A model generated the notes under the pieces. It did no database searches and had not been told where the DNA came from. It saw nothing but the letters and a program-made list of their open reading frames with translations. Source: Escherichia phage vB_EcoS_PTXU06. Taken from it: 45,904 bases of DNA. The translations under genes were made by a program, and so were the position numbers. Below are positions 1,813 to 32,303 of the stretch, in pieces; the first letter of the stretch is position 1; each line of letters opens with the position of its first letter. The DNA lies in the sequence record NC_073064.1. One strand, 5' to 3'.

Positions 1813-1847
1813 AGTCCCAGTGAGATAAAACTTACTGGGACTTTTTT
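1813..1847 (+). terminator. rho-independent terminator
   Basis: Inverted repeat AGTCCCAGT / ACTGGGACT followed by TTTTTT. Confidence 0.55.
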
Positions 1848-2138
1848 ATGGATAAGCTAAACGAGTGGTTATTCGCCCTTGCGTGTCTGGCGGGCGGCTT
1901 CGTAGGCGCGCGCATTCACGGCGAGGCTACGAAAGGGCCGCTAAACTTCGTTTTATATATCGTAGTTGGCTTCCTGTGTGCCATATTTGGTGCGCCAGCT
2001 ATCGCCGAGTGGGCGGGCTTATCGGGCGAGCGCACTGTCGCCGGTTTGGGCTTCGTAACTGCAATCTTCTGGATGCCAATAGCCGCCCGGATCAGGGAGA
2101 CTATTGAGTCGTTCCGACTTCCGGGGGGCGCAAAATGA
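1848..2138 (+). CDS. putative holin (multi-TM membrane protein)
   Basis: 96 aa with 2-3 hydrophobic helices; two genes upstream of a lysozyme. Confidence 0.45.
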   Translation: MDKLNEWLFALACLAGGFVGARIHGEATKGPLNFVLYIVVGFLCAIFGAPAIAEWAGLSGERTVAGLGFVTAIFWMPIAARIRETIESFRLPGGAK

Positions 2139-2380
2139 TTATCTCCGTCCTGTTGTTTGTTATCATTGGGGCTTCGTCCCTGTTTAACGTGTATGCGCCG
2201 TCCGTCCAGGATGGCATTTTAGGCCGGGTGTTATATCTGCTAACGGCGATGATCTGCGTTATCGGATTGTTGCAAACGGGAGACGTATCAGACACCACCT
2301 GGACCGCGTTAATCTGGCTGTTTGCATTGCGCACGCTGCGTAATGCTGTTTTGAATGGGGTAAAACATGCGATTCAGTGA
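2135..2380 (+). CDS. small membrane protein (holin/antiholin-like)
   Basis: 81 aa, three hydrophobic segments; ATGA-coupled to the upstream gene; directly precedes the lysozyme. Confidence 0.4.
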   Translation: MIISVLLFVIIGASSLFNVYAPSVQDGILGRVLYLLTAMICVIGLLQTGDVSDTTWTALIWLFALRTLRNAVLNGVKHAIQ

Positions 2381-2858
2381 CAACGGTCTAAGATTTACGG
2401 CAGCATGGGAGCAATTCAGCCCAGTGCCGTATTTCGCGACTAAGAAAGAGCAGGCCCGCGGCCTGTATACCTGGGGCTATGGTCACACCGGCACTAATCC
2501 GCCGCGGAGCATTACCCGTGCGGAAGCACTGGAGCTACTCAAGCGCGACGTGGCGTATGCCGAAAACTGGGTGAACAAGTACGCACACCCGAGCATCAAT
2601 CAGGCGCAATTCGACGCGCTGGTGGACCTGGTTATCAATGCTGGTCCAGGTCCGATCATGCCGGACGACGTCGCGGGTGATTTCGACGATGCGATCCGCC
2701 TGGGTGACTGGGCGAAGGTCCGTGCTATTCTGCCACAGTTCCGCAAGCAAGGCGGGGAAGTGCTTAAGGGACTTGTCCGTCGAGCAATAGGCAGGCAAGC
2801 GCTATTCGATGGAAAGCAGTGGGACGTCGCCGAGAAGATCGGACGTAACGCAGCATAA
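2367..2858 (+). CDS. endolysin, lysozyme (GH24 / T4-lysozyme-like fold)
   Basis: 163 aa; WEQF...TWGYGHTG arrangement resembles the catalytic Glu and downstream TxGxGH region of phage lysozymes. Confidence 0.7.
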   Translation: MRFSDNGLRFTAAWEQFSPVPYFATKKEQARGLYTWGYGHTGTNPPRSITRAEALELLKRDVAYAENWVNKYAHPSINQAQFDALVDLVINAGPGPIMPDDVAGDFDDAIRLGDWAKVRAILPQFRKQGGEVLKGLVRRAIGRQALFDGKQWDVAEKIGRNAA

Positions 2859-2874
2859 TACGAGGGGACACAGT

Positions 2875-3288
2875 ATGTTAAAAAGTATTCTTGATCATAA
2901 CGCCGACGCGCTCGCCGCGCTGGCTAAAACCGAAGACCCCGGCGCACGCGCGATTGTAGCGGATACGATCAGCCATGCGGGGGTCTTCGACGCGAAGCTG
3001 CCTCGCCCGCCGGAAAGTAAGCCGGTGACAAGCGCCACCGTAACCATCACACCGGAATCCGCCGCAGTTGGTGCGAAGGCCACCGCTTCGGTTGAGGTCC
3101 AGCCACCCGACGCGACTAACAAGGCCGGGAAGTGGGTGTCGTCGAATCCCGCCTGCGCGGCAATCGATCAGACTACCGGCGAAATCACAGCCCAAACGGC
3201 GGGTAGCGCCCACATCTTTTGGGTGGCCTCAGATGGTAGCGGGGCGATGGCGTCCGCCATCTTCACCGTAACGGGGGCGGAAGAATAA
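2875..3288 (+). CDS. Ig-like (Big_2-type) domain protein
   Basis: Start taken at the ATG with GAGGGG RBS (the track ORF begins at 2809 inside the lysozyme); sequence TVTITPESAAVGAKATASVEV...WVSSNPACAAIDQTTGEITAQTAGSAHIFW resembles bacterial Ig-like group 2 domains. Confidence 0.45.
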   Translation: MLKSILDHNADALAALAKTEDPGARAIVADTISHAGVFDAKLPRPPESKPVTSATVTITPESAAVGAKATASVEVQPPDATNKAGKWVSSNPACAAIDQTTGEITAQTAGSAHIFWVASDGSGAMASAIFTVTGAEE

Positions 3289-3294
3289 ATCTAC

Positions 3295-3321
3295 AAGCCC
3301 GGTTAATTCCGGGCTTTTTAT
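3295..3321 (+). terminator. rho-independent terminator
   Basis: AAGCCCGG-TTAATT-CCGGGCTT hairpin followed by a T-run. Confidence 0.6.
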
Positions 3322-3517: not shown

Positions 3518-4669
3518 TTGATTAATATGCACCCGCAAACTAAAATCACCGACGAGCAATTGATCGCCGAGTTGCAATCCGGCACTACCGCGAAAGAGAT
3601 TGCGAAGAAGTACGGCCTTTCCCTACGAAACGTCTACATGCGCAAAGCCCGCCTGTCGAAGAAAGGTATTGGTCACGGCAACGATGCCGTAATCCGTAAG
3701 CGCGTTGCCGATGGCTTCGGCGTTAAGCGCGTATCCGCCCTGGTACGCGGCAATGGCGAAGAGGTCATGTCGTGGGTTATCACTGAGCAGGACAAAGAGC
3801 GCCAGCTTGAAGCAATGCGCGCCGTTGTCGATGGTATGAACAGCGAAATCACACCGGCAGCACCCGTAAGCGCCCCGCCAGTCCCGATCCAGGCGCTCGA
3901 CCTGCTCAACCTGTACACCGTGTCCGACTTCCACCTGGGCATGTTGGCCTGGGGCGAGGAGACTGGCGAAGACTGGGATATGGCGATTGCCGAAGACCTG
4001 TTCTACCGCTGGTTTGTCGAAGCCTTCGCACGCGCACCGGACGCAGGCACTGCCGTAATTAATATCCTCGGTGATATGGCACACTTTGATAGCCTCGATG
4101 CCGTCACACCTGCCAGCGGTCACGTACTGGACGCGGATACCCGCTACCAGAAGCTGGTCCGCTACATGATTCGCATGGTGCGCAACGTGGTGGAACTGGC
4201 GCTGCAAAAACACCACAAAGTCAAACTGCTAATCGTCCAGGGGAATCATGATGAGTCGGGCATGATTTGGCTGGCTGAAATGTTCAATACTCTGTACGAG
4301 AACGAGCCACGCGTCGAGGTGGACACATCCCCAGATGTGTACAAAATGGTGCAGCACGGTAAAACAACGCTGTTCTTCCACCACGGGCACAAAGCACGTT
4401 TTGACGCTATTGAAACCGTCATGATTTCCAAATTCAGACAAGCGTTCGGATCCAGCGAGTACAGCTACGCGCATGTAGGCCACTTGCACCACCAGAAGAT
4501 TGTAGAATCCCGCAACATGATTGTTGAACAGCACCGGACCCTCGCCGCGAAAGACGCATATGCCAGCCGCGGCGGTTGGATGTCCGGTCGTAGCGCCAAC
4601 GTAATCACCTATAGCGCCAACTACGGCGAAGTAGCGCGCTTAACCATTAGCCTGGAAATGTTGAAATGA
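3518..4669 (+). CDS. HTH domain + calcineurin-like metallophosphoesterase
   Basis: N-terminal HTH-like segment (TAKEIAKKYGLSLRNVYMRKARL); ordered phosphoesterase motifs DFH, GDMAHFD, GNHDE, HHGH, GHLHH. Confidence 0.6.
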   Translation: MINMHPQTKITDEQLIAELQSGTTAKEIAKKYGLSLRNVYMRKARLSKKGIGHGNDAVIRKRVADGFGVKRVSALVRGNGEEVMSWVITEQDKERQLEAMRAVVDGMNSEITPAAPVSAPPVPIQALDLLNLYTVSDFHLGMLAWGEETGEDWDMAIAEDLFYRWFVEAFARAPDAGTAVINILGDMAHFDSLDAVTPASGHVLDADTRYQKLVRYMIRMVRNVVELALQKHHKVKLLIVQGNHDESGMIWLAEMFNTLYENEPRVEVDTSPDVYKMVQHGKTTLFFHHGHKARFDAIETVMISKFRQAFGSSEYSYAHVGHLHHQKIVESRNMIVEQHRTLAAKDAYASRGGWMSGRSANVITYSANYGEVARLTISLEMLK

Positions 4670-4923
4670 TTAGACAAGTATTCATGAGCACGCAGGCCGC
4701 ACGCCTGAAAGAACTACGCAAACAACTGGAAGGATTGCGTCGATTCGAACGAACGGCAGCGGCAATCGGCATGTCTATCAGCGAGCGGATCGAGATACTA
4801 TCGCAAATACGCTACACAGAAGGCGCTATACGCGAAGTAGAAAGCATGTTAACCGATACTACGGTCGCGCCGTTTAACCCTCCTAGCCTGCCGATTTGGT
4901 GGGCTTTTTTGTGCCTGTTATAA
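4666..4923 (+). CDS. hypothetical protein
   Basis: 85 aa; ATGA overlap with the upstream gene. Confidence 0.45.
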   Translation: MIRQVFMSTQAARLKELRKQLEGLRRFERTAAAIGMSISERIEILSQIRYTEGAIREVESMLTDTTVAPFNPPSLPIWWAFLCLL

Positions 4924-4993
4924 TCCCCTTAGATGGCAGGGCCGTCTCCTATGTTGCCGATGGTCGGCGCATATGCACAAAAGGGCTTATATC

Positions 4994-5545
4994 ATGGCAG
5001 AAATTAAAGTTAAAGGCCGTCGCGCTAAACTGGACGGACGAGTAGCAGTTACCCCGCGCCGTAAACCAGGCGAGCAAACCGAGCATACCAATCTCGGACC
5101 TGAAATCGAGTACGGAAAGCGCCGTAAAGGCGGCAAATGTGGACGCCCTACTGACTACCGATCCGTTTACTGCGACCAGCTTCGCCGCTATTTTGCCGAC
5201 GCCGACGCCTGGCAGGTAAACTACTCCGATAAAGGCGCTGCGCAAGTAATCCCCCGCAACAAAATGCCAACCTTCGGTCGATTTGCCGCGGAAATCGGCG
5301 TGGGCGTAGCTTGCCTGTATCGCTGGGCGCGTGCGCATGAGGAGTTCGCCGAGGCGATGGCGGACGCTATGGAGTTGCAGAAAACTTTCCTGATGGAAGC
5401 TGGCGGCGTGACCATCGCGGCGGGCTTCGCTACCTTCCTGCTTAAAGCCAACCACGGCGTCCGGGACGACGTACCGCTGGATGACGACGAAGATGATAAC
5501 GGCGACGTCGTTGTGGAACCTACCGGCAAAGGCCAGGGTGATTAA
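4994..5545 (+). CDS. putative terminase small subunit
   Basis: Immediately upstream of and overlapping the large terminase; basic N-terminus; start at 4994 has the better RBS (track start 4973). Confidence 0.5.
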   Translation: MAEIKVKGRRAKLDGRVAVTPRRKPGEQTEHTNLGPEIEYGKRRKGGKCGRPTDYRSVYCDQLRRYFADADAWQVNYSDKGAAQVIPRNKMPTFGRFAAEIGVGVACLYRWARAHEEFAEAMADAMELQKTFLMEAGGVTIAAGFATFLLKANHGVRDDVPLDDDEDDNGDVVVEPTGKGQGD

Positions 5546-6930
5546 TGCGTAACTATGCGGCAGAACATCGCGCCCTTGAACGAGCGATCGCAAAGCGAAA
5601 CCGACCGCCGCGCCCGACACGCGTTGCGCAGGCCGTCCGCCTTTACCAGCCTGATTGCTTGCCGCACCAGGTTGAACTACTGCGCGACACGAAGACTAAA
5701 ATCCTCGGCCTGTGTTCCGGCTTCGGTGGCGGCAAGTCATGGGTTGCGGCGCGAAAGGTCATCCAGCTTTTAACACTGAACCCCGGTCATGATGGCATCG
5801 TGACAGAACCGACTATTCCACTTCTGGTCAAAATCATGTACCCGGAATTGGAAAAGGCATTCGACGAGGCGGGCTTCCGGTGGAAGTTCAATAAGCAGGA
5901 CAAGATTTATAGCGTGCTGGTGAAAGGCAAGTGGACGCGCGTAATCTGTGAGTCAATGGAGAACTACACCCGCCTTATCGGGGTTAACGCCGCATGGATT
6001 GTTGCCGACGAGTTCGACACCACGAAACAAGACGTCGCAATGGCGGCATATCACAAATTGCTTGGTCGTCTGCGTGCGGGCTTTGTCCGCCAGTTCGTCA
6101 TCGTGTCCACGCCTGAAGGCTTCCGGGCGATGTACCAGATTTTCGAAGTGGAGAAAGACAGCCAGAAGCGTTTGATCCGGGCGAAGACTACCGATAATCA
6201 CCACTTACCGGCAGACTTTATTGACACGCTGCGCAGCCAGTACCCGGCTAACCTGATTGACGCGTACTTGAACGGCCTGTTTGTAAACCTTACGTCTGGC
6301 GCGGTTTACAAGATGTTCAATCGTGAGGAGAACGCCAGCACCGAAGAAGTGCAACCGGACGACACGCTGATTATCGGTATGGACTTTAACGTCACGAAAA
6401 TGGCGGCGGTTGTGTACGTCAGACGGCAGCGCATCACCGAGAACAAGGAGTTCCGCGACGAGATCCACGCAGTGGATGAATTTGTGGACCTGTTTGATAC
6501 CCCGGCTATGATTGAGGCGATCGAGGAGCGCTACCCCGATCATTGTGCTGCCGGTAGGGTCGTCGTTTACCCGGATAGCAGCGGAAAATCCCGCAAAACG
6601 GTCAACGCGTCGTCGTCCGATATCGCGCAACTGGAAGATGCGGGCTTTGAGGTGGAATACGACAGCGTTAACCCGCCTGTGAAAGATCGATTGATCGCGA
6701 TGAATACGATGATGTGCAACTCGAAGGGCGTGCGCCAGTATTTTGTCAACCTGGATAAATGCCCTACACTAGCGAAATGTCTGGAACAGCAGGTTTACGA
6801 CCTGAAGAAAGGCGAGCCGGATAAAACCGCCGGTGTGGACCACATGAACGATGCCGCGGGCTATCCAATTGCGCACCTGTTCCCAGTGATTCGCCCAATC
6901 GCCGTTGTTCCAACTGTAGACTTCTACTAA
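5545..6930 (+). CDS. terminase large subunit
   Basis: 461 aa; P-loop GFGGGKS, Walker-B-like WIVADEFD, C-terminal nuclease-like acidic residues; followed by portal. Confidence 0.85.
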   Translation: MRNYAAEHRALERAIAKRNRPPRPTRVAQAVRLYQPDCLPHQVELLRDTKTKILGLCSGFGGGKSWVAARKVIQLLTLNPGHDGIVTEPTIPLLVKIMYPELEKAFDEAGFRWKFNKQDKIYSVLVKGKWTRVICESMENYTRLIGVNAAWIVADEFDTTKQDVAMAAYHKLLGRLRAGFVRQFVIVSTPEGFRAMYQIFEVEKDSQKRLIRAKTTDNHHLPADFIDTLRSQYPANLIDAYLNGLFVNLTSGAVYKMFNREENASTEEVQPDDTLIIGMDFNVTKMAAVVYVRRQRITENKEFRDEIHAVDEFVDLFDTPAMIEAIEERYPDHCAAGRVVVYPDSSGKSRKTVNASSSDIAQLEDAGFEVEYDSVNPPVKDRLIAMNTMMCNSKGVRQYFVNLDKCPTLAKCLEQQVYDLKKGEPDKTAGVDHMNDAAGYPIAHLFPVIRPIAVVPTVDFY

Positions 6931-6940
6931 GGAAACGACC

Positions 6941-8461
6941 ATGACCGTTAACGTTGACAACCAGCACCCACTCTATGCGCGCATCGCGCCAGAGTGGAAG
7001 ATGATCCGCGATTGTGTAGCAGGTGAGCGCGCCGTGAAGGCGTGCGGCCCCTTGTACCTGCCTCATCCCGCCAGTGGCGACAATACTGACCCGAAAGCAC
7101 GGGCGCGGTATAAGGCGTACAAGCAACGCGCTGTATTCCTGAACGCCACCGCCCGCACACTTAACGCGCTGTTAGGCGTTGCCTTTGCTAAACCGGTAAG
7201 TCTGGACCTTTCCGGGGCGATGGCTGACCTGATTGACGACGTAGACGGCAGTGGTATGCCGCTGCCGCAACTCCTGCGCGGTGCTATGTCTGAAGTTCTG
7301 CAATCAGGCCGTGCGGGCTTTATGGTCGACTACGACCGCCAGGCGCATTTTGATGAACTGGGTAACGTAGTTCCGCAGACAGCCGCCGAGATGGCGTCAC
7401 ACCGCCCGCTTATCCGCCTGTACACGGCAGAACAGATCATCAACTGGCGGCAGACCCACGGCGTCGATACGCTAATTGTGCTGAAGGAAACGGACGAAAT
7501 CAGCACCGAAGACCCGGACGACTTCGCAAACCACGAAGTAACAATCTGGACCGAGCTTCGCATGGTTAACGGTGCGGCACACGCCCGCCGCTGGTTTTAT
7601 AACGCGGACACGTCCGAGGTGAAAATGGACTTGCCGCGGGGATTTACCCGCACCGACCTTGTGCCGCTGGTGGATGCCTCCGGTAATGCGCTTACACAAC
7701 TTCCGTTTTGCTGGTGTGGTGCTGTGGACAACAACGCGACGCCGGACGCCGCGCCGCTGGCAGATATCGCATCCATCAACATTAAGCACTACAACGCCGA
7801 AGCGGACGTCGCCGAGATTGCGCACATCGTGGGTCAACCTACTCTGGTGGCAACGGGCTTGACTCAATCATGGGCGGACAAAAACCTGAAGGGTGGCATT
7901 GCCCTCGGTGCGACTAAGGGCGTTATCCTGGGCCAGAACATGGACGCTAAACTGATCCAGGCCGAGGAGCGCAACTTGTCTGTTGCACTGTGTGAGCGAC
8001 GCGAATTGCAAATGGCTAAACTAGGCGCGGCCCTGGTTGAGAAGGGGACCGCACCTAAGACGGCAACAGAGGCGGCCTACGATGCGCAGACTGATAACAG
8101 CATCCTGTCGCTTATTGCCGGTAACGTTGAGAAGGCTTTCAACCGTGCGCTGCAAATCGTGCAGCTTTTCACTGGTGACACCGCCGACCAGCGTGTGACG
8201 CTGAATAAGTTCTACACCGAAATCACGGTTGATGCGCAGCTTATGACCGCGATGATGTCGGGTGTGCAGACTGGCACGGTCCGCCTGGCCGATTTCATCA
8301 AGTGGATGATGGCGCAGGGCGTCATCGACGACTCGCAAACCGTCGAGCAGGTGGAAGACGAATTGCGAAATCAGAATCCATTGCCTCAAATGTCCCCTGA
8401 TGCGGTAGAATCTACCGAAGAAGACCCGGACAAGGTAGCGGACAATGGCGAAGACAATTAA
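6941..8461 (+). CDS. portal protein
   Basis: 506 aa directly after the large terminase; acidic C-terminal tail; size and position typical. Confidence 0.7.
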   Translation: MTVNVDNQHPLYARIAPEWKMIRDCVAGERAVKACGPLYLPHPASGDNTDPKARARYKAYKQRAVFLNATARTLNALLGVAFAKPVSLDLSGAMADLIDDVDGSGMPLPQLLRGAMSEVLQSGRAGFMVDYDRQAHFDELGNVVPQTAAEMASHRPLIRLYTAEQIINWRQTHGVDTLIVLKETDEISTEDPDDFANHEVTIWTELRMVNGAAHARRWFYNADTSEVKMDLPRGFTRTDLVPLVDASGNALTQLPFCWCGAVDNNATPDAAPLADIASINIKHYNAEADVAEIAHIVGQPTLVATGLTQSWADKNLKGGIALGATKGVILGQNMDAKLIQAEERNLSVALCERRELQMAKLGAALVEKGTAPKTATEAAYDAQTDNSILSLIAGNVEKAFNRALQIVQLFTGDTADQRVTLNKFYTEITVDAQLMTAMMSGVQTGTVRLADFIKWMMAQGVIDDSQTVEQVEDELRNQNPLPQMSPDAVESTEEDPDKVADNGEDN

Positions 8462-9548
8462 TCAATATTTGGCGGATCGAATGATCCGCCGTCACATCTT
8501 CACCCAACGCCTGAGCAATGACCAGGCGCGAAGGGTGCTGGCTATGTGGGAGAAGTTCCGCCCCGCTTTACTGGGTAAGTTGACCGAGCTACTAGATGGT
8601 AAAAAGTCCATGAGCAACAAGGCACTTACCACACTGTTAACGCAACTAGACAAGACCGTCAAAACGGAACTGCGCGCCGAGTTTAAAGTGCTGGCGGAGA
8701 GCCTTCAGGAGTTCGCCGACACCGAGGCTGATTATCTCGCTGACACACTAACGGCAGCGATCCAGCCCGCTGTCGCCGTACCCGCTGTTGAAGTAGTTGG
8801 CGTTGTTACCGGCGCGCAGATTGCAGCGACTGCAGTGAAAAACCCGTTCCAGGGTAACACCATGATGCAATGGCCTGACTCACTTTCCGAGTGGACCAGG
8901 ACGCAGATCGGCAATCAGGTGCGCGCTGGATTCATCCAGGGCAAGCCGACTATGGAAATTATTGCGGACGTGAGGCGCGCGCTAGGCGGTCGTAGTGCGC
9001 AAGCAATCTCAAGCGTTGTTAAGTCCGCGGTCAACCACTATGCGGCGACCGCCCGCGAATTAATGGTAAAAGCTAATGATGATATTCTCGAAGGTCGCCA
9101 ATGGTTGGCTACATTGGACACGCATACTTCTCCCATGTGCCAGCTACGCGATCGCCTGTTTTATCCGGTTGCTGTTACTCCCGACACCAAAGGCAAGCGC
9201 GGCGGGAAAGTGGTGGCGGGATCACAATATGGCGCTGGTCCGGGCAAGCTGCATTATTGCTGCCGTTCGACGGAGACGTGGAAAGTCAAAGGTATGGAAG
9301 ATTGGCCCAGTGGTAAGCGTCCGGCACTGAAGGCTGACGCAGGCAGGTTGCTGAGTGAGCAGGTCGACGCGCAGACTGATTTCTTCTCCTGGGTGCAGCG
9401 CCAGCCGCGCCATATTCTGGAGGAATTATATGGGGTGCAACGCGCCGACCAGATTATGCGCGGCGTGAAAGTGCCGAAGATGTTTACCGATTCTGGCGAA
9501 CTGATGACTATTGCACAGCTTAAAAACCGGGGGTTATGGCGTGATTAA
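8445..9548 (+). CDS. head morphogenesis / minor head protein
   Basis: 367 aa directly after portal; positional call. Confidence 0.5.
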   Translation: MAKTINQYLADRMIRRHIFTQRLSNDQARRVLAMWEKFRPALLGKLTELLDGKKSMSNKALTTLLTQLDKTVKTELRAEFKVLAESLQEFADTEADYLADTLTAAIQPAVAVPAVEVVGVVTGAQIAATAVKNPFQGNTMMQWPDSLSEWTRTQIGNQVRAGFIQGKPTMEIIADVRRALGGRSAQAISSVVKSAVNHYAATARELMVKANDDILEGRQWLATLDTHTSPMCQLRDRLFYPVAVTPDTKGKRGGKVVAGSQYGAGPGKLHYCCRSTETWKVKGMEDWPSGKRPALKADAGRLLSEQVDAQTDFFSWVQRQPRHILEELYGVQRADQIMRGVKVPKMFTDSGELMTIAQLKNRGLWRD

Positions 9549-9870
9549 ATATGCAGCGATCGTACTGGTTATCGGTCTGGTGGTAGGATTCTGGCTAGGT
9601 GACTCCTATCGCGCTGGCGTAGTGGCGGAGGCGGCACAAGAAGCGCAAGCAGAAGCCCAACGGCAGCAAACTAAAGTTATTGAGCGCTCCGTGCAGGCCG
9701 AACAAGCCCGCGACGTAGAATACCGGACTATCACGAAAGAGGTTGTTAAATATGTTACGCGCCCTAACCGCCCTGATTGTAGTTTTGATGCTGAGCGCGT
9801 GCGGATCAAGCAACGTGCCGTTGATGCCGCTAACGGAGTCGGCACTGCGACCGCCGTGCAAGTTCGATAA
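9541..9870 (+). CDS. i-spanin (Rz-like)
   Basis: GTG start with CCGGGGG RBS 7 nt upstream; N-terminal TM helix (AAIVLVIGLVVGFWLG) then coiled-coil-like AEAAQEAQAEAQRQQ; contains an embedded lipoprotein ORF in another frame. Confidence 0.45.
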   Translation: MIKYAAIVLVIGLVVGFWLGDSYRAGVVAEAAQEAQAEAQRQQTKVIERSVQAEQARDVEYRTITKEVVKYVTRPNRPDCSFDAERVRIKQRAVDAANGVGTATAVQVR

Positions 9871-9982
9871 CCCGTCCGCGGACCCCGACGAAGATTTGAT
9901 GATTGACGTGAAAAATATGGAATGCGGCGCGAAGCTAAGGGCGCAGGTCCTGGAGTTGCAGCAAATGATTAAGGGGCCGTAA
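9752..9982 (+). CDS. o-spanin (Rz1-like outer-membrane lipoprotein)
   Basis: ATG 9752 with GAAAGAGG RBS; signal peptide with lipobox L-S-A-C (MLRALTALIVVLMLSACGSS); proline-rich; starts inside the i-spanin gene in a different frame. Confidence 0.55.
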   Translation: MLRALTALIVVLMLSACGSSNVPLMPLTESALRPPCKFDNPSADPDEDLMIDVKNMECGAKLRAQVLELQQMIKGP

Positions 9983-9995
9983 TGGCCCCCTTTTA
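9973..9995. terminator. rho-independent terminator between convergent genes
   Basis: GGGGCC-GTAAT-GGCCCC hairpin followed by TTTT; located between the plus-strand spanins and a minus-strand gene. Confidence 0.55.
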
Positions 9996-10760
9996 TTAGC
10001 GCGGAATACCGCAGATTTCGTTTAACGTCTTCACGTCCAGCGCCACCGCCGTGGACTTCGGCTTATCCGGGTATGGAATAAACTGTTCAACTTCAGGCCA
10101 CGCCTTGATCAGCTTCTTATCGGTATTGTGCATATCAAGCACGCCGGTAACGGTTAGTTTGAACGCGTCATACTTAGCACGCAACTCACGTCGGGCATTG
10201 TCGTTACGGTCCAGGCGCTTGCAGAAATCATGATCCGCCGGGAAATCCGCACGACAGCGCGGCTTATAGATCGGCAGCGCTTTCCCATCCTCGTCCACTT
10301 CGCACACAGAAGCCAGCATTACTTCTTCGAACCCAGGTACAATATCGCCGAGATCGGGAGATAGCTTATTCATGTATTTATATTCCCAGTATCCGCGATG
10401 TACTCGGTATTGTCGTCCGTCACCGCTCAATGACAGTGTGCGCACATTTCCGCCTGCGTTGATTTCGAAAGTGGCGTCGTAAACGCTGCCGATGCCTTTT
10501 GGGCGGTCAGCGTTATAACTATACGTCGCCTTGTTGGTGTATACGCTTACTCCGTACATCTGCGACGGGTCGTCGCCGATTGCTTTAATGCGCGCGAGTA
10601 GCTCGGCGAAAGTGCGAATGCCTTCCGGCATACAGTCCAGCGTAATGGCGTACGCCAGGTCGCGCGAGTCCATCATGATGGATTTGGCTTCGGTCGCGAT
10701 TTCATGGTCGCGCAGGATGTTAGCCAGGATCAGGTTTTTAATGTCTTTTGTCAGTCTCAT
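9996..10760 (-). CDS. hypothetical protein (minus-strand insert in structural block)
   Basis: 254-aa ORF with GAGGA RBS; opposite strand to all flanking structural genes; no recognisable motif. Confidence 0.6.
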   Translation of the reverse strand: MRLTKDIKNLILANILRDHEIATEAKSIMMDSRDLAYAITLDCMPEGIRTFAELLARIKAIGDDPSQMYGVSVYTNKATYSYNADRPKGIGSVYDATFEINAGGNVRTLSLSGDGRQYRVHRGYWEYKYMNKLSPDLGDIVPGFEEVMLASVCEVDEDGKALPIYKPRCRADFPADHDFCKRLDRNDNARRELRAKYDAFKLTVTGVLDMHNTDKKLIKAWPEVEQFIPYPDKPKSTAVALDVKTLNEICGIPR

Positions 10761-10803
10761 TTTTGTGTCCTCGTTGTTGGGGCTTTCGCCCCGTTTGGTT
10801 TAG

Positions 10804-11211
10804 TTAAAGTGCTTCTAGAATCTCGTAAAACTTATTTGCCAGCGCTTGGCGGCGTTCGAATTTTTCAGTGATAACCAATTCCGGGCGGTTAAATAGCTTT
10901 GCGTGGGTGTTCCAATTGAGGATTTCCGTTTCCATTATTTTCTTCCGGTTGTAGTCGGTGTTTTTGATGCTAAATTCCTTGATAGCGTCATTAAGAAAAT
11001 CAGTCATACACTCAACGTCTGTTCTCTTAACTTCGAACGTACGGGCCTCGATTGGGCTATTTGTGCGAAGTACGACGACTCCGCCGTGGTAGGTGTCGAC
11101 TACCATATACTTATAAGTCACCCCATCCCACTCCGGATCGAAAGGGCGCCCAAATACGTCGTCGGCTTTCCACACTTTCTGGTACGGTGTTTCTTTGATT
11201 AATGTTGGCAT
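10804..11211 (-). CDS. hypothetical protein (minus-strand insert in structural block)
   Basis: 135-aa ORF; region looks AT-richer than its flanks by eye; no recognisable motif. Confidence 0.55.
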   Translation of the reverse strand: MPTLIKETPYQKVWKADDVFGRPFDPEWDGVTYKYMVVDTYHGGVVVLRTNSPIEARTFEVKRTDVECMTDFLNDAIKEFSIKNTDYNRKKIMETEILNWNTHAKLFNRPELVITEKFERRQALANKFYEILEAL

Positions 11212-11284
11212 TTTGTTTTTCCTTCATGTCTCTGTTGGTGTGCAACCAATATATTGCAACCAATACCCGGATTGCAAGCGAATT

Positions 11285-11312
11285 TTGCGATTATTTTTAT
11301 CGCTGATAATAT
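11285..11312 (+). promoter_or_regulatory. candidate promoter for the scaffold/capsid operon (-35 TTGCGA, 16-bp spacer, -10 TAATAT)
   Basis: Read directly; two TGCAACCAAT direct copies lie just upstream (11241-11264). Confidence 0.3.
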
Positions 11313-11367
11313 TAAAGGCGTGAAGTCGAGCGGGAGGCCCGCTCTGCCACAATCCCAGGGGGATAGC

Positions 11368-12072
11368 ATGAAACTTACTAAAGCAGAATATGACGCGTTG
11401 CCGGAAGGTATGAAGGCGCTTTTTGTTGCCGATGGCGACGGGTATAAATCAACGTTCATGACCGCAGAAGAAGTACAGGCGGAAATCAAGGGTCTGAAAG
11501 AAAACAACGCGAAGCTGGTGAGCGAGAAGAAAGCAGAAGCCGAACGCCGCGCCGAAGCTGAGCGCCTTGCGAAAGAGAAAGAGGAAGCCGCCGCGCGCAA
11601 AAATGGCGACCTCGAAGCGATCGACAAGTCCTGGAAAGATAAGTTTGCTAAACACGAAGCAGACACATCGGGAAAAATCGAAGCCTACCGCAAGCAGATC
11701 CACGATCTCACCATCGGCAGCGCTGCCAAAGACCTGGCGTCGAAGCTGTTCGGCAAGAATGCGGGCATCATGCAACGCCACGTAATGGACCGCCTGACGC
11801 TGGAAGACGGCGAAGACGGCAGCTTGAAAGTGCGTGTCTTGCAGGATGGCAAACCGTCCGCGCTGACGATGGAAGAGCTTGAAAAAGAGTTCCGTAATAA
11901 CGCCGATTTTGCATCCGTCCTGGCTGGCACGCCAGCCGGTGGCGCGCCTAGCAAACCGACGCAGGTTGTCGAAGATGTGAAGTCGAAAATCACTATGGGC
12001 CATAGCTTCGGTATCACTGACCTTACGAAACAGGCGGGGGATATCATCGCGAAGATGGGCGACGACGAGTAA
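11368..12072 (+). CDS. putative head scaffolding protein
   Basis: Start at the ATG with AGGGGGA RBS (track start 11254 lies in the intergenic promoter region); charged coiled-coil-like sequence; immediately precedes the major capsid gene. Confidence 0.55.
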   Translation: MKLTKAEYDALPEGMKALFVADGDGYKSTFMTAEEVQAEIKGLKENNAKLVSEKKAEAERRAEAERLAKEKEEAAARKNGDLEAIDKSWKDKFAKHEADTSGKIEAYRKQIHDLTIGSAAKDLASKLFGKNAGIMQRHVMDRLTLEDGEDGSLKVRVLQDGKPSALTMEELEKEFRNNADFASVLAGTPAGGAPSKPTQVVEDVKSKITMGHSFGITDLTKQAGDIIAKMGDDE

Positions 12073-22024: not shown

Positions 22025-22632
22025 CCACCTTTAAACTCTACGGCGTCTTAGGACGTCGTTTCGGTAAAGTGCATAAGCTGGACTGCTTCACGCCGGGCGA
22101 GGGTATCACCGGCCTGTGTGTGAAGTTACCAGGCCTACAGGACTTTTTAATGTCGGCCCACCTTGACAACATGATGTTCAAAGTGCGCAAGGGCAATCAC
22201 ACAATGACCGGCTACGATGAGCTGGGCGAGTTCCACGGCAACCGCGTAGTAACCATCGCCCCGGTTATGACTGGTGCAAAAAGCGGACTGGGCCAATTGC
22301 TGGCGGGTGTAGCAATCGTGGTGGCGTCGTTCTATACCGGCGGGCTTGCGACTGCCGCTTTCGGAGCTTCAGCGGCGACCGCGGCCTCTATTGGCGCAGC
22401 GACGTTTTCGTTCGGGATGTCTATGGCGCTGGGGGGCGTTATGCAATTGCTATCGCCGCAACCGAAAGGATTGCAGACACGGCAGGACGTGGATAACAAG
22501 GCGTCGTATGCGTTCGGCGGACCGGTAAACACGACCGCGCAAGGCACGGCACTTGGTGTATTATGGGGCGAACGTGAGATCGGCGGCGCTATTATTTCAG
22601 CCGGAATCGTAACAGAGGACTTGAACGAATGA
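22015..22632 (+). CDS. tail assembly protein I-like
   Basis: 205 aa; Gly/Ala-rich hydrophobic C-terminal half; position between K-like and J-like genes. Confidence 0.6.
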   Translation: MAMTTFKLYGVLGRRFGKVHKLDCFTPGEGITGLCVKLPGLQDFLMSAHLDNMMFKVRKGNHTMTGYDELGEFHGNRVVTIAPVMTGAKSGLGQLLAGVAIVVASFYTGGLATAAFGASAATAASIGAATFSFGMSMALGGVMQLLSPQPKGLQTRQDVDNKASYAFGGPVNTTAQGTALGVLWGEREIGGAIISAGIVTEDLNE

Positions 22633-25600
22633 CGATTATCTACGACGTCACTGGGCATAAAGGCGGCGGCGGCAAACAGCACACCCCGCAGGAGACGCCG
22701 GACAGCCTGCATTCGCTGGCTAAAATCCGCATCTTGCTTGCGCTGGGGGAAGGGGAGTTCGAAAGTATTACCAGCGCCAGCGAATTGCGGCAGCGAGTAT
22801 ATCTGGACGGCACGCCGATCCAGAACGCCGACCTGTCGGAAAACTTCCCCGGCGCGCGCGTGGAGTTCCGCCCAGGCACACAGCACCAGGACGTGATCCA
22901 CGGATTTTCAGCGGTAGAAAGCGAGCAGTCCGTCGGTGTAAAACTGGAAAACGGCACGCCGTGGGTGCGCCAGATTAATGACACCAGTCTTGACGCTGTG
23001 CGCATTCGAATCGGCATTCCGGCTTTGTACACCAACGAAGATAATGGCGACCTGGTGGGCGGGCGCATCGACTATAAAATCGTTGTGTACACCGATAACG
23101 CGGATCCGCGCGAGTTCAACTTCGCTGCCGTTGGTAAAACAATGTCGCTATATGAGCGCGACCACCGCATCGAATTACCGCCGAACGTGAATACCGGCTG
23201 GCGCGTGGAAGTTCACCGCACAACGGCAGATTCTACATCGGCGAAAGTGGTTAATGATATCCGGGTGCAATCCATCACTGAGATTATCGACGCCCGCCTG
23301 CGTTACCCGCTAACCGCGCTGTTGTTTGTGGAGTTCGACGCCAAAGCGTTCCAGAACATCCCGCGCGTGTCCATCAAGTGCAAAGGCCGCAAAGTTCTAA
23401 TACCGAACAACTACGACCCGATTAATCATACCTATTCCGGGGACTGGGATGGCACGTTCAAACGCGCATGGACGGATAACCCCGCGTGGCACTGGTACGA
23501 TATTTGTATTACTGAGCGCTTCGGCCTCGGTCGGCGTATCAAACCGCAAATGTTAAACCGGTACGCGCTCTACCAGATTGCGCAGCGCTGCGATCAGTTG
23601 GTCAGTGACGGCAACGGCGGGCGAGAAATCCGCTTTAAGAATGATATGTACATACAGTCGCAGACCGACGCCTGGACCGTGCTTAAGGATCTAGCTGCCA
23701 TCTTTGCCGGTATGACCTGGTGGGGAAACCAGATGTTGAATATCGTAAGTGACCAGCCGGTCGCAGCGGTATCGCACACTATCACCAACGCCTCGGTTAT
23801 TGATGGCAGATTTGACTACGCGTCAGGGAGCCAGAAAACCCGCTATTCCACGTTCGCGGTAGCATACGGCAACCCGAAAAACCACTATGATGACGCTATC
23901 GCAACGGGCCAGCGCGTCGAACTGGTGCGCCGCCATAAGATTAACCGTCTTGATATAACGGCGATCGGCTGTACGCGCGAATCTGAAGCGCAACGCCGCG
24001 GACACTGGGCGCTAATCTCCAACCAGTTGGACCAGCAGGTCAGCTTCAAGGTTGGCATGGAGGGGCTATTCTTTATTCCTGGTAGCGTAGTCGCGATCGC
24101 GGATACTAATATTTCCGGCGGATTCGAGACTCGCGGCGGTCGCCTGTTGTCAGACCCTGGCACGCGTACCGTGCTTAACACAGACAGCGAAATCACATTC
24201 CGCCCTGGTGATAAGTTCCTGGTGCGCACCGATAGCGGAAATGTGGAGACTCGCGAGATCGCCAGCGTCAACGGCAACAAGGTCACGCTAAAAACCGCAC
24301 TGGATGCCGACCCGATTCCAGACCAACCGTTTTGCGTTGATGGCGACGATATCCAGTTGCAAAAATTCCGCATCACCGATCTGGAGTATGACGACTCTAC
24401 GAGCACTTTCTCGGTGCGCGGGATTGAATACAACGATAGCAAATATGATGCCGTTGATAATGGCGCACGACTAGACCCGGGCATCTTTACGCAAGTGCCA
24501 GACGGGGTAATGAAGGGGCCGGAATCCGTGACCATCACCCCGTCGCAGATTTCATCGCAAGGACAGCTAATCACCAACGTGGATATTGTTTTCCCGCCGG
24601 TGAAAGATGCCGTTGTATACGAAATCCAGTGGCGACGTACCAGCTTGCAGAATATGGCAATCCAGTGGGGAAACGACTGGGTAAACATCCCCCGCACGGC
24701 ATCGAACGGCGCTCACATCCCAAATGTGTTTTCTGGTAACTACCAGGCCCGCGTCCGCGCGATCGGTATGGGCGAGATTTCATCCCCGTGGGTGGAGTCT
24801 GCCATCACGCCGGTAGAAGGTCGTCTCGGTGGGCTTAACGCGCCTATCATCACTAACGCGATTTCTGGCCTCCACCAGATTTTGTGGAAGTGGAACCATA
24901 ACAACGCCGCGACGGATATCTCTTACACCGAGCTTGAAGTGCGCAAGACTGGTGAAACGGAATGGAAATTTCTTACAAACGTCCCATATCCGGGGGCGGA
25001 GTATGCCCAAACGTCACTGGAGTTCGGGATCTATCAGCAGTTGCGCGCCCGTGTAGCGGATAAAATCGGCAACCTATCGGACTGGTCGGACCCGTTTGAA
25101 GGGCAGGTGAGTGACAAAGTTGACGAGTACATGAAGGGTCTTGATGACGAGTTCTTGACTTCCGAGGATGGTAAACGCTTCCAGGAAGCAATCGACACGA
25201 TCCCGCAGGGTATTTACGAGGCGATGCTCACCGACGCGCAGCAATTGTTCAACGCCCGCGCCGAGTACAAGGGTATTTATGCGGAAATCTCGGTCGCGTA
25301 TAACGTGGCGGCGGACGCCCACAAGGCGGTCGCCCAACTGGAGACGTTGATCGGCACGCGACTTGACGATGCGGAAGCGGCGATCCACACGTTGCAGACA
25401 GCGCAAAGCACGCACGAACAAGCGTTTGCCCAGTACCAGCAAACTGTTGCCGCTAAGTTCGGGGAACAGGAAGCCGCCATCCAGCAGGTGCAAACGGCAA
25501 CGGCAGACGTAGCGGGCGCGCTGGCGGAGTACAAGACCCAGGTCGCGGCACAGTTCGGTCAGCAGTCCGCCGCTATCGAGCAGAAGATGACGTCCACGTT

Positions 25601-26051
25601 TAACCATGCCGGTGGCAACGCCACATACCGCCTTAAGGCTGGCGTGACGTATAACGGGACTTACTACGATGCCGGTATGCAGCTTTCAGTTGTTGCGGAA
25701 GGTGGCGAGGTTAAATCCCGCATCGCGTTCAAGGCGGACCAGTTCTACATCATGCACCCATCTAACGGGTCGCTTTCGTCCGCGTTTATCGTGGACGGCG
25801 GCGCGGTGTATATTGACACGGCACGCATCAAGGACGCGACTATCAACTTCGCGCAGATCACGGACACGCTGCAATCGAATAACTATGACGGCTACTCGCG
25901 TGGCTGGCGCTTAGGGAAAGACGGAACGTTTATCAACCTGGGAACCGGTAACGGTGGCGGGGCGATGAAAATGACGAATGACACAATCAGCGTAAAGGAT
26001 TCTAACGGAGTTTTGCGAGTTCAGATTGGTAAAATCACGGGGGGTTGGTGA
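22629..26051 (+). CDS. host specificity protein J-like central tail fiber
   Basis: 1140 aa; N-terminus (HKGGGGKQHTPQE...) resembles lambda J-family proteins; terminal gene of the tail-tip operon. Confidence 0.85.
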   Translation: MTIIYDVTGHKGGGGKQHTPQETPDSLHSLAKIRILLALGEGEFESITSASELRQRVYLDGTPIQNADLSENFPGARVEFRPGTQHQDVIHGFSAVESEQSVGVKLENGTPWVRQINDTSLDAVRIRIGIPALYTNEDNGDLVGGRIDYKIVVYTDNADPREFNFAAVGKTMSLYERDHRIELPPNVNTGWRVEVHRTTADSTSAKVVNDIRVQSITEIIDARLRYPLTALLFVEFDAKAFQNIPRVSIKCKGRKVLIPNNYDPINHTYSGDWDGTFKRAWTDNPAWHWYDICITERFGLGRRIKPQMLNRYALYQIAQRCDQLVSDGNGGREIRFKNDMYIQSQTDAWTVLKDLAAIFAGMTWWGNQMLNIVSDQPVAAVSHTITNASVIDGRFDYASGSQKTRYSTFAVAYGNPKNHYDDAIATGQRVELVRRHKINRLDITAIGCTRESEAQRRGHWALISNQLDQQVSFKVGMEGLFFIPGSVVAIADTNISGGFETRGGRLLSDPGTRTVLNTDSEITFRPGDKFLVRTDSGNVETREIASVNGNKVTLKTALDADPIPDQPFCVDGDDIQLQKFRITDLEYDDSTSTFSVRGIEYNDSKYDAVDNGARLDPGIFTQVPDGVMKGPESVTITPSQISSQGQLITNVDIVFPPVKDAVVYEIQWRRTSLQNMAIQWGNDWVNIPRTASNGAHIPNVFSGNYQARVRAIGMGEISSPWVESAITPVEGRLGGLNAPIITNAISGLHQILWKWNHNNAATDISYTELEVRKTGETEWKFLTNVPYPGAEYAQTSLEFGIYQQLRARVADKIGNLSDWSDPFEGQVSDKVDEYMKGLDDEFLTSEDGKRFQEAIDTIPQGIYEAMLTDAQQLFNARAEYKGIYAEISVAYNVAADAHKAVAQLETLIGTRLDDAEAAIHTLQTAQSTHEQAFAQYQQTVAAKFGEQEAAIQQVQTATADVAGALAEYKTQVAAQFGQQSAAIEQKMTSTFNHAGGNATYRLKAGVTYNGTYYDAGMQLSVVAEGGEVKSRIAFKADQFYIMHPSNGSLSSAFIVDGGAVYIDTARIKDATINFAQITDTLQSNNYDGYSRGWRLGKDGTFINLGTGNGGGAMKMTNDTISVKDSNGVLRVQIGKITGGW

Positions 26052-26690: not shown

Positions 26691-26990
26691 CTACCCCCAA
26701 TACGTATATATAAATCTTGATTCGCCAGCGTTAAAGCCGCTCCAGGAGACAGTGTTGTCGCTTACGGATATTGATGGCGCACCCCAAGATGTGCCGTTCC
26801 AGGTATGCGTACCAACGTAACCTGCCTTTAAACTTTTCCCCGGCGGACGGTTGTGATACGTCTTGCTCCCGGATGGTTGTGTGAATTTGTCAAGAAAAAA
26901 AACCGGCGTTAACAGGCCTGTGACGTCACGACCATGTTCGTCATAAATCGCGTACCCATAGTTACTCACTTCTACACTCCACAATTTCAA
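26691..26990 (-). CDS. hypothetical protein
   Basis: 99-aa ORF, translationally coupled to the downstream gene. Confidence 0.45.
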   Translation of the reverse strand: MKLWSVEVSNYGYAIYDEHGRDVTGLLTPVFFLDKFTQPSGSKTYHNRPPGKSLKAGYVGTHTWNGTSWGAPSISVSDNTVSWSGFNAGESRFIYTYWG

Positions 26991-27231
26991 ATTTATCTTC
27001 GCTTTGCCATCTGTGAACGAAAGTTACAAATTTCTGTGATGGGGCTACTCGGTATTGTTTTTCGCCAAATCGGTTTTCACGCACCGCGTTTAGTTTAACA
27101 GGGTAGCTATCGTTTACGGGGAATGTTTTAACCGCATATTGGCCTACGCAATCGATAGCCTTGTAGTTGCCGTCTGGCGATGCGGAGCAACCGGACAAAA
27201 GAACCGCACAAATCATAATTAAAGTTTTCAT
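26962..27231 (-). CDS. small lipoprotein (candidate superinfection-exclusion / receptor-blocking protein)
   Basis: Start at the internal ATG with GGAGA RBS; signal peptide with lipobox L-S-G-C (MKTLIMICAVLLSGCSA); sits between two tail fiber genes. Confidence 0.5.
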   Translation of the reverse strand: MKTLIMICAVLLSGCSASPDGNYKAIDCVGQYAVKTFPVNDSYPVKLNAVRENRFGEKQYRVAPSQKFVTFVHRWQSEDKFEIVECRSE

Positions 27232-31985: not shown

Positions 31986-32303
31986 TTACGCATAAAAATT
32001 CGGGTCGCGCGCGACGTCTACCAGATACAGGTTGCTGATTCGGTTGCCGTAGTGGCCTGGTGTTCGCTGGCGGCACACAACGGCGTAGCCTGGAGGAATT
32101 GTATTGCCGGTCGCGATAATCCACGCCACGCGTGCGCCCGATAGAGTTTTGCCGTTGCATTCGATGCGCGTGCCGCCATCGGCGGTATTGAGGTTGCCAA
32201 TTTTGCAGCCGGTGGACTTCAGACGAATGACGCCGGTTTTGCTGTCGTAGGAGAATAACTGGTTAGTCATTGCAACCGAAAAATCGATGGCTTCGAATGT
32301 CAT
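31986..32303 (-). CDS. HNH_3-like (homing-endonuclease-like) protein, possibly degenerate
   Basis: 105 aa; ARVAWIIATG and GNRISNLYLV resemble HNH_3 proteins but the canonical D-H is replaced (VCRQ); ATGA-coupled to the upstream methyltransferase-like gene. Confidence 0.4.
   Translation of the reverse strand: MTFEAIDFSVAMTNQLFSYDSKTGVIRLKSTGCKIGNLNTADGGTRIECNGKTLSGARVAWIIATGNTIPPGYAVVCRQRTPGHYGNRISNLYLVDVARDPNFYA

Follow-up and report, generated by a model that had tools for sequence, protein, structure and literature searches.

The window, by which we mean the whole 45,904-nt stretch of DNA that was analyzed, is the complete genome of Escherichia phage vB_EcoS_PTXU06 (PTXU06; NC_073064.1), a Dhillonvirus (HK578-like Escherichia coli siphophage). 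Its closest relative is Zar3M. Between the head-morphogenesis and scaffold genes, outside any lysis cassette, lie two short overlapping genes that are referred to below as the i-spanin gene and the o-spanin gene. The locus and the genes that precede it are organized as follows.

4973-5545, terminase small subunit gene.
5545-6930, terminase large subunit gene.
6941-8461, portal gene.
8445..9548, plus strand, head-morphogenesis gene of the Mu gpF / SPP1 gp7 type (PHROG 241 at 2e-115).
9529..9533, plus strand, G-rich Shine-Dalgarno-like run, 7 nt 5' of the i-spanin GTG (read from the sequence).
9541..9870, plus strand, i-spanin gene, 109 aa, GTG start (PHROG 2536, "Rz-like spanin," at 3e-36).
9550..9600, plus strand, codons of the i-spanin transmembrane segment YAAIVLVIGLVVGFWLG, residues 4-20 (maximum 17-residue Kyte-Doolittle hydropathy 2.36, at residue 1).
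9737..9742, plus strand, Shine-Dalgarno sequence AAGAGG, 9 nt 5' of the o-spanin ATG and within the i-spanin coding sequence (read from the sequence).
9752..9982, plus strand, o-spanin gene, ATG start, 76-aa precursor and 60-aa mature protein (PHROG 5672 at 8e-26, PHROG 1267 at 1e-11).
9752..9802, plus strand, predicted o-spanin lipoprotein signal peptide with the lipobox L-S-A-C at its end (Cys17 codon 9800-9802).
9973..9989, plus strand, intrinsic-terminator-like hairpin GGGGCC-GTAAT-GGCCCC, followed by CTTTTATT (terminator scan).

The N terminus of the i-spanin is MIKYAAIVLVIGLVVGFWLG, and its hydropathy supports the transmembrane helix that the original prediction had placed in the open reading frame (ORF) at 9541-9870. 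This helix is followed by a long predicted helix, a linker containing Cys80, a short second helix, and a variable C-terminal tail. A single-sequence AF2 model placed helices at residues 3-72 and 84-97 with low confidence; the AF2 models of both proteins are of this single-sequence kind, with pLDDT values of 58-66, and give hints of secondary structure only. Lys3 lies before the hydrophobic segment, and by the positive-inside rule the sequence fits a predicted N-in, C-out topology. The Kyte-Doolittle profile and the low-confidence AF2 helices thus describe a protein with a single N-terminal transmembrane domain (TMD) and a periplasmic, largely alpha-helical remainder, as is expected of an i-spanin. 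The GTG start codon is kept in 17/17 relatives, and the equivalent ORF in Bas84 carries an i-spanin annotation. The start of the gene shares 8 nt (9541-9548) with the stop end of the head-morphogenesis gene, to which it appears to be translationally coupled.

The product of the o-spanin gene begins with the signal MLRALTALIVVLMLSAC and satisfies the PROSITE PS51257 lipoprotein rule as re-implemented here, Cys17 being the predicted lipidated residue. The lipoprotein ORF starting at 9752 and its LSAC lipobox, both originally predicted, are supported by this rule, but the proline richness ascribed to the protein is only moderate, at 7 Pro in the 60 residues of the mature form (12%). The residues at +2 and +3 after Cys17 are Gly and Ser, with no Asp at +2, so that the protein has no recognizable inner-membrane retention signal and presents the lipobox Cys in the context expected of an o-spanin. 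The single-sequence AF2 model consists of a signal helix, a disordered stretch at 17-52, and a helix at 53-73. In Bas84, the equivalent ORF is annotated "Rz-like spanin." When applied to the whole genome, the PS51257-type rule also accepted a Cor-like lipoprotein gene and six spurious-looking ORFs lying wholly or largely inside longer ORFs; the lipobox on its own does not exceed chance in this genome. The Cor-like protein was the only other credible lipoprotein, and this genome-wide lipobox scan revealed no other spanin candidate. The Cor-like gene adjoins the tail-fiber genes.

The i-spanin and o-spanin genes share 119 nt, with the o-spanin gene in the +1 frame relative to the i-spanin gene. 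The pair had been described as a classic embedded Rz/Rz1 arrangement. The embedded, lambda-type architecture requires an o-spanin frame wholly within the i-spanin gene, and this description has to be abandoned: the o-spanin frame begins inside the i-spanin gene but ends (9982) 112 nt past the i-spanin stop (9870). Of the three arrangements of adjacent spanin genes (embedded, overlapped, and separated), that of PTXU06 corresponds to the overlapped class of PMC6139136 (P2 LysB/LysC type), and the same study places the HK578-like phages in this class. Some relatives carry a 102-aa i-spanin allele with a shorter overlap; the PTXU06 window holds the 109-aa allele.

In 17/17 Dhillonvirus loci, both ORFs remain intact and start at the same offsets, and the lipobox is LSAC, LTAC, or MSAC in all of these. 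In the part of the locus that encodes only the i-spanin, nucleotide diversity is 0.069/0.037/0.208 at codon positions 1/2/3; in the part that encodes only the o-spanin, read in the o-spanin frame, it is 0.083/0.038/0.210. The region of overlap is less diverse overall (0.079) and has no relaxed third position. Both frames are protein coding and under purifying selection. Among seven aligned family members, C80 of the i-spanin is invariant (7/7), and C36 and C58 of the o-spanin are each kept in 6/7; these are periplasmic cysteines that could be used for intermolecular disulfide bonds. Homologs of the o-spanin with 31-47% identity can be recognized in Jerseyvirus, Kagunavirus, and metagenomic contigs. 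Three genera and 665 phage records retain the pair. We judge the pair to be real because it is intact in all 17 loci, the codon-position diversity fits each frame, and the PHROG matches are strong.

Two-component spanins (a class defined by Summer et al. 2007 and Kongari et al. 2018) combine an inner-membrane protein with an outer-membrane lipoprotein, and a TMD protein with an overlapping lipoprotein and conserved periplasmic cysteines, as predicted here, is the signature of this class. The Jersey i-spanin and o-spanin families were defined by Kongari et al. 2018 (BMC Bioinformatics 19:326; PMC6139136), whose members in the overlapped class include HK578, JL1, EK99P-1, EP23, SSL-2009a, and SO-1. 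The Jersey families, in which the closest group is the short subfamily "EP23 to SO-1," correspond to PHROG 2536 for the i-spanin and PHROG 5672/1267 for the o-spanin; the latter two are also named "Rz-like spanin," and PHROG family names come from annotation rather than experiment. Both PTXU06 proteins have significant similarity to these families, with 92-95% identity to the EK99P-1 pair and 92-97% to EK99P-1 and EP23, and Jerseyvirus and Kagunavirus homologs were found by tblastn. The equivalent ORFs of EK99P-1 are annotated as Rz-like spanin. We are thus highly confident that the pair is a two-component spanin of the overlapped type and belongs to the described Jersey family. Kinship with lambda at the level of sequence is another matter. 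Scans of both proteins against Pfam and NCBIfam gave nothing meaningful, with no Pfam family at E <= 1 except a spurious DUF7904, and hhalign of small family alignments gave probabilities of 0.3% for lambda Rz and 11.8% for lambda Rz1, so that membership in the Rz (Pfam Phage_lysis) and Rz1 sequence families was rejected. The original designation as an Rz/Rz1 spanin pair accordingly holds for the type of system and not for its sequence lineage. No relatives of either protein emerged from profile searches of PDB sequences.

Spanin genes are usually, but not obligatorily, linked to those for the holin and endolysin. In PTXU06 they are not, and the remaining lysis genes lie near the left end of the window.

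1848..2138, plus strand, first holin-like gene (PHROG 2359, "holin," at 1e-31).
2135..2380, plus strand, second holin-like gene, holin or antiholin (PHROG 2508, "holin," at 1e-26).
2367..2858, plus strand, endolysin gene of the T4-lysozyme family (PF00959 at 4e-20; PHROG 7).

The endolysin looks like a canonical soluble enzyme because it has no N-terminal hydrophobic segment. The neighboring ORF at 2809-3288 was considered as a second spanin or a unimolecular spanin and rejected, since it encodes an Ig-domain (Big_2) protein. The coordinates originally reported for the holins, lysozyme, terminase, and portal agree with ours, and the reported separation of about 7 kb, with terminase and portal in between, corresponds to 6.7 kb from the endolysin stop. 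A comparison of lysis gene positions in related phages, which had been proposed as a check, shows that the split is not peculiar to PTXU06: the same order is conserved in Dhillonvirus, Kagunavirus, and Jerseyvirus. A literature search for statements combining "not adjacent" and "head morphogenesis" returned nothing; the split gene order is remarked on in the announcement of the Guernseyvirinae-like phage Schulenberg. Neither the pair nor its location apart from the rest of the lysis genes is out of the ordinary, both having been catalogued already for this group of phages. T4 shows that linkage of spanin genes to holin and endolysin genes is not required (PMC6139136). Members of the same PHROGs are found directly after a holin-holin-endolysin cluster in an IMG/VR contig (L022). 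In Klebsiella phage 2 LV-2017, a DNA relative of the spanin region of this contig is annotated "protein spanin" and lies downstream of Q, directly behind the lysozyme gene. The lysis role of the PTXU06 pair is supported by these homologs because they adjoin an endolysin gene.

The o-spanin stop codon falls in the loop of the hairpin at 9973..9989, and the RNA fold of the hairpin region has an energy of -16.3 kcal/mol (z = -2.5). As read from the sequence, this hairpin would end a terminase-portal-head morphogenesis-spanin transcription unit, and such an operon is supported by the terminator together with the start-stop overlap. The spanin genes would be the last cistrons of this unit. It is conceivable, but quite improbable, that this placement is functional rather than historical, either tying spanin dosage to head-assembly output or reflecting a second envelope role in morphogenesis or superinfection exclusion in Dhillonvirus and Guernseyvirinae.

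Could the out-of-frame lipoprotein ORF be an unexpressed chance frame in and after a real gene? That six spurious-looking ORFs also satisfy the lipobox rule speaks for this, but chance does not readily account for an ORF whose start, lipobox, and two Cys are conserved and which is intact in all 17 Dhillonvirus loci, which can be recognized in other genera and in metagenomic contigs, which is preceded by a good Shine-Dalgarno sequence, and whose diversity outside the overlap is concentrated at the third positions of its own frame (0.21 versus 0.083 and 0.038). The conservation data effectively refute the idea, and we consider it hardly credible. It is also very unlikely that the pair is a spanin that the phage can dispense with, the outer membrane being disrupted by another route, for example, by a disruptin-like peptide. 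Phages without spanins exist, and alternative routes have been proposed (PMC6139136), but the purifying selection on both frames and the retention of the pair across genera argue against redundancy, and the lipobox scan turned up no alternative candidate.

A somewhat stronger, though still unlikely, alternative is that the two proteins are not a spanin at all: the lipoprotein could serve in superinfection exclusion or host modification (like Cor, Llp, or Bor), and the membrane-anchored helical protein could have an unrelated role, such as one at the membrane during head assembly. The position of the genes between head-morphogenesis and scaffold genes, the absence of detectable homology to proven spanins by Pfam or by hhalign against lambda Rz and Rz1, and the fact that we found no published experimental test of the Jersey spanin family in the literature are all compatible with such roles. 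The spanin systems named as tested in PMC6139136 are those of lambda, T7, P2, T4, and T1. Against these points, an endolysin gene immediately precedes the homologs of both proteins in a viral contig and a DNA relative in Klebsiella phage 2 LV-2017. In addition, a Cor-like lipoprotein is already encoded beside the tail-fiber genes of PTXU06, the phage without this pair would have no outer-membrane disruptor that the lipobox scan could identify, and the combined features of the pair are those of a two-component spanin.

For the two-component spanin, a sequence of events can be proposed by analogy with lambda Rz/Rz1. The N-terminal helix of the i-spanin would hold the protein in the inner membrane, with a mostly helical domain extending into the periplasm, and the o-spanin, once processed at Cys17 and lipidated, would be delivered to the outer membrane, in its inner leaflet. 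Binding between the C-terminal parts of the two proteins would yield complexes that span the periplasm and are probably stabilized by disulfide bonds involving i-spanin C80 and o-spanin C36 and C58. During late expression these complexes would build up harmlessly, caged in the peptidoglycan mesh. Once the holins (1848-2380) have triggered and the wall has been removed by the endolysin (2367-2858), the freed complexes would destroy the outer membrane, probably through its fusion with the inner membrane. Because the holin sets the timing, the spanin genes would need only late expression and no adjacency to the holin genes.

The importance of this assignment beyond annotation is slight. Many Dhillonvirus records, including that of Zar3M, label both ORFs "hypothetical protein," and the correct label (i-spanin and o-spanin, overlapped) is useful for genome descriptions in phage therapy. 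As the PTXU06 locus illustrates, spanin genes may sit outside the lysis cassette, where automated annotation based on neighborhood can miss them. Complementation with a member of the Jersey family would add one validated family to the existing handful.

The prototype, lambda Rz/Rz1, likewise consists of a type II inner-membrane protein with a helical periplasmic domain and a small outer-membrane lipoprotein encoded by the same DNA in the +1 frame, with periplasmic cysteines. Unlike the PTXU06 o-spanin gene, Rz1 (46186-46368) lies wholly inside Rz (45966-46427), and the lambda pair directly follows S and R. The i-spanin is 109 aa in PTXU06 versus 153 aa for lambda Rz, and the mature o-spanin is 60 aa versus about 40 aa for Rz1, the latter figure depending on the Rz1 cleavage site. 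In general descriptions, P2 lysB/lysC belong to the lysis cluster of that phage, whereas the PTXU06 pair is some 6.7 kb from its own endolysin gene. In the tested, overlapped P2 LysB/LysC system, the o-spanin frame also starts within the i-spanin gene in the +1 frame and overruns it, but its o-spanin belongs to a different family, and P2 is not grouped with Jersey for the i-spanin either (PMC6139136). T4 PseT.3/PseT.2, also tested, resembles the PTXU06 pair in the location of its genes away from holin t and endolysin e (PMC6139136, Fig. 8), in the similar sizes of its proteins (117 and 83 aa), and in an o-spanin with two cysteines and a predicted C-terminal helix. It differs in its separated architecture and its family, and the T4 holin and endolysin genes are unlinked from each other, whereas those of PTXU06 are adjacent.

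Closer to PTXU06, the Jerseyvirus templet has the same gene order (holin-holin-lysozyme, terminase, portal, head morphogenesis, i-/o-spanin, scaffold, and capsid), and the Kagunavirus K1ind2 shares it from terminase through capsid. In these phages, however, the proteins share only 35-48% identity with their PTXU06 counterparts, and an extra "tail protein" gene is found between the head-morphogenesis gene and the spanin genes. The short Jersey subfamily is from the same genus and has the same overlapped architecture, a two-helix i-spanin with a short linker, and a variable i-spanin C-terminal tail. The predicted secondary structure agrees with the published description of this subfamily, and Jersey o-spanins have two constant Cys at alignment positions 45 and 67, with the same 22-residue spacing as C36 and C58 here (PMC6139136). 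Nothing substantial sets the PTXU06 pair apart from this subfamily, of which PTXU06 represents another isolate.

The 2.4-kb stretch around the spanin pair matches 156 phage records at 80 to 96% identity, nearly all of them from Escherichia/Shigella Dhillonvirus (HK578-like siphophages). Of these, vB_EcoS_Zar3M (45,901 bp) matches best and is colinear with the window at identical coordinates, which together indicates that the 45,904-base window is an essentially complete Dhillonvirus genome. Sequence and ORF list place the two reading frames exactly as described in the original prediction, with ORF 2 starting out of frame within ORF 1:

9541..9870 (+), i-spanin gene (ORF 1), GTG start, 109 aa
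9752..9982 (+), o-spanin gene (ORF 2), ATG start, 76 aa, +1 frame relative to ORF 1
GGGGG (+), at -7 before the ORF 1 GTG, read in the sequence
AAGAGG (+), Shine-Dalgarno 9 nt 5' of the ORF 2 ATG, read in the sequence

The first 8 nt of ORF 1, beginning with its GTG, are also the last 8 nt of the head-morphogenesis gene before it, stop codon included. The ORF 1 product begins with MIKYAAIVLVIGLVVGFWLG (Kyte-Doolittle peak 2.36, 17-residue window), continues as an Ala-, Gln- and Glu-rich sequence, and has a single cysteine, C80. ORF 2 begins with MLRALTALIVVLMLSAC-GSS and passes a re-implemented PROSITE PS51257 lipoprotein rule (Arg within residues 1-7, uncharged h-region, Cys17), bearing out the proposed lipobox LSAC. 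Residues at +2 and +3 after the lipobox cysteine govern lipoprotein sorting (the Lol rule), and since these are Gly and Ser, the o-spanin is predicted to reach the outer membrane. Of the 60 residues of the mature protein, 7 are prolines, and beyond Cys17 it has two cysteines, C36 and C58.

The lipobox rule alone is weak evidence, because a Cor-like lipoprotein gene and six spurious-looking ORFs lying wholly or largely within longer ORFs of the same genome also satisfy it; the comparative data are decisive. Two GenBank records and 15 IMG/VR contigs gave 17 Dhillonvirus loci for comparison, and neither ORF is interrupted in any of them: ORF 1 keeps its GTG start, ORF 2 its ATG at offset +211, and the cysteines and a lipobox of LSAC, LTAC or MSAC are conserved. 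Codon positions 1/2/3 have diversities of 0.069/0.037/0.208 in the i-only segment and, in the o frame, of 0.083/0.038/0.210 in the o-only segment, while the 119-nt overlap has a lower total diversity (0.079) and no relaxed codon position. Two real protein-coding genes that overlap would be expected to give just such a pattern. The i-spanin tail differs among relatives (109 versus 102 aa), and within Dhillonvirus the pair is more divergent (76 to 83% identity in some loci) than its flanks (89 to 100%). The two proteins change together, as expected of interacting proteins encoded by shared DNA.

The reading as a spanin pair holds in substance, with corrections to architecture and to kinship with lambda. 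The i-spanin matches PHROG 2536 (3e-36) and the o-spanin PHROG 5672 (8e-26) and PHROG 1267 (1e-11), all named "Rz-like spanin"; the equivalents in JohannBuxtorf_Bas84 are annotated "i-spanin" and "Rz-like spanin", and both in RefSeq EK99P-1 are annotated "Rz-like spanin." The "Jersey" i-spanin and o-spanin families, which include EK99P-1, EP23, HK578, JL1, SSL-2009a and SO-1, are filed under the overlapped architecture (Kongari et al. 2018, PMC6139136). Rather than being embedded, as first proposed, the o-spanin ends 112 nt beyond the i-spanin stop, and the pair is overlapped. The shorter Jersey subfamily, "EP23 to SO-1," has i-spanins with two helices, a short linker and a variable unstructured C-terminal end, and o-spanins with two constant cysteines spaced 22 residues apart (PMC6139136). 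All of these published traits fit: the C36-C58 spacing is also 22, two i-spanin helices are predicted, and tail length varies among relatives. Low-confidence AF2 single-sequence models place i-spanin helices at 3-72 and 84-97, and an o-spanin helix at 53-73 after a disordered stretch (17-52). "Classic Rz/Rz1" applies by analogy only; sequence kinship with lambda was rejected because Pfam and NCBIfam scans of both proteins gave no match and hhalign comparisons of the family alignments with lambda Rz and Rz1 reached probabilities of only 0.3% and 11.8%. A PDB sequence profile search found no solved structure for any relative of either protein.

The predicted gap of about 7 kb from the lysis genes, with terminase and portal between, proved to be 6.7 kb from the endolysin stop. 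Gene and terminator order is as follows:

1813-1842 (+), strong terminator, hairpin of 12 pairs, then T run
1848-2138 (+), holin
2135-2380 (+), holin
2367-2858 (+), lysozyme (endolysin)
2809-3288 (+), Ig-domain protein ORF (Big_2, PF02368, 3e-10)
3295-3316 (+), terminator, hairpin of 8 pairs, then T run
3518-4669 (+), metallophosphoesterase/exonuclease-like gene, followed by a small ORF
4885-4905 (+), terminator after the small ORF
TerS, TerL, portal, head morphogenesis (8445-9548), then the i-/o-spanin pair (+)
9973-9989 (+), terminator, with the o-spanin stop codon within its loop

This order suggests that the packaging/head-morphogenesis unit ends with the spanin pair. The strong terminator-like hairpins at 1813-1842 and 3295-3316 bracket the holin-holin-endolysin-Ig-domain block, which suggests that the lysis cassette is transcribed as a separate unit from the one bearing the spanins. 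The Ig-domain protein is highly variable (53 to 86% identity versus 93 to 100% for its neighbors). Its real start is probably an internal ATG near 2875, not the endolysin-overlapping one, because the Big_2 match begins at residue 23.

All Dhillonvirus loci that extend far enough share the split order. Jerseyvirus templet has the complete order from holins to capsid and Kagunavirus K1ind2 the order from terminase to capsid, with spanins only 35 to 48% identical to those of the window, which argues that the split arrangement is ancestral to a large group; an i-spanin homolog is present in 665 phage records. In a recent Dhillonvirus paper, the locus tag of the spanin is the seventh after that of the endolysin, a placement left without comment (PMC12677095). 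The pair is already known: it is a catalogued member of a described spanin family, and its position is known as well.

Other genomes bear on function. In IMG/VR contig L022, spanins that, like those of the window, belong to PHROG 2536 (8e-43) and PHROG 5672 (1e-19) complete a contiguous holin-holin-endolysin-i/o-spanin cassette, and a DNA relative of the L022 spanin region in Klebsiella phage 2 LV-2017, after the lysozyme gene and downstream of Q, is annotated "protein spanin." Contig L024 (IMG/VR UViG_3300033070_000410) has at 9947-10450 a more distant relative of the i-spanin (167 aa, PHROG 2536 at 8e-13), about 1 kb after the endolysin gene with an HNH-like gene between; an apparent lipoprotein ORF, MPKILTSAIAVLLLSSGC..., lies wholly inside this i-spanin gene and stops short of its end. 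If that ORF is real, relatives of this family span embedded, overlapped and separated architectures. A genome-wide lipobox scan and inspection of the ORF after the endolysin yielded no alternative spanin in the window: that ORF encodes the Ig-domain protein, and besides the o-spanin there is just one credible lipoprotein, which is Cor-like. These neighborhoods and the lack of another candidate support a lysis function for the pair.

The Cor-like gene (26962-27231, minus strand; 89 aa, MKTLIMICAVLLSGC...) matches PHROG 1119, "Cor superinfection exclusion protein" (3e-7), just downstream of the large tail-fiber gene (22629-26051). A minus-strand island (9996-11370) separates the spanin terminator from the scaffold gene and carries an Nmad5 (nucleotide-modification-associated domain 5) protein (9996-10760; PF18757, 2e-56) and two ORFs, 10804-11211 and 11199-11666, that match no family; most of the second overlaps the opposite-strand scaffold ORF, and it may be no gene. 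The island looks like a variable accessory-gene slot, because 4 of 17 relatives (contigs L005, L012, L015 and L016) lack the Nmad5 match and spanin-to-capsid distance varies by several hundred base pairs. A tandem direct duplication at 32105-34232 (1,064-bp unit, ~32105-33168 and 33169-34232) is apparently perfect (100% identity over the first 300 nt compared, with the few mismatches confined to the scanned-range edges) and yields two identical 231-aa ORFs (32300-32995 and 33364-34059, minus strand) beside an SNF2-type helicase gene. The best 12 relatives have one copy, annotated HNH endonuclease or hypothetical protein, since the 2.5-kb query collapses onto ~1.44 kb of each record; the duplication is either a very recent event or an assembly artifact. 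An 87-bp tandem repeat (42154-42327, two copies, 86% identical), which would encode a charged Lys/Asp/Glu-rich segment, lies in ORF 41948-42643 (minus strand, 231 aa, no Pfam match).

By analogy with the established lambda model, the i-spanin would sit in the inner membrane with its N terminus cytoplasmic and C terminus periplasmic, and the o-spanin, with lipid attached at Cys17, would go to the outer membrane. Their C-terminal regions would bind across the periplasm, probably stabilized by disulfide bonds between conserved cysteines. Held inactive in the murein mesh, the complexes would be freed once the holin triggers and the endolysin clears the mesh, and would then disrupt the outer membrane, probably through membrane fusion. 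Because the holin would set the timing, linkage to the lysis cassette would be unnecessary, so spanin position could drift and then be inherited. 

The textbook example of spanins encoded apart from the other lysis genes is T4 (PMC6139136), which the window resembles in this respect. Among tested spanins, those of P2 are overlapped and those of lambda and T7 embedded (PMC6139136); the window pair shares the overlapped class with P2 and differs in this respect from lambda and T7.
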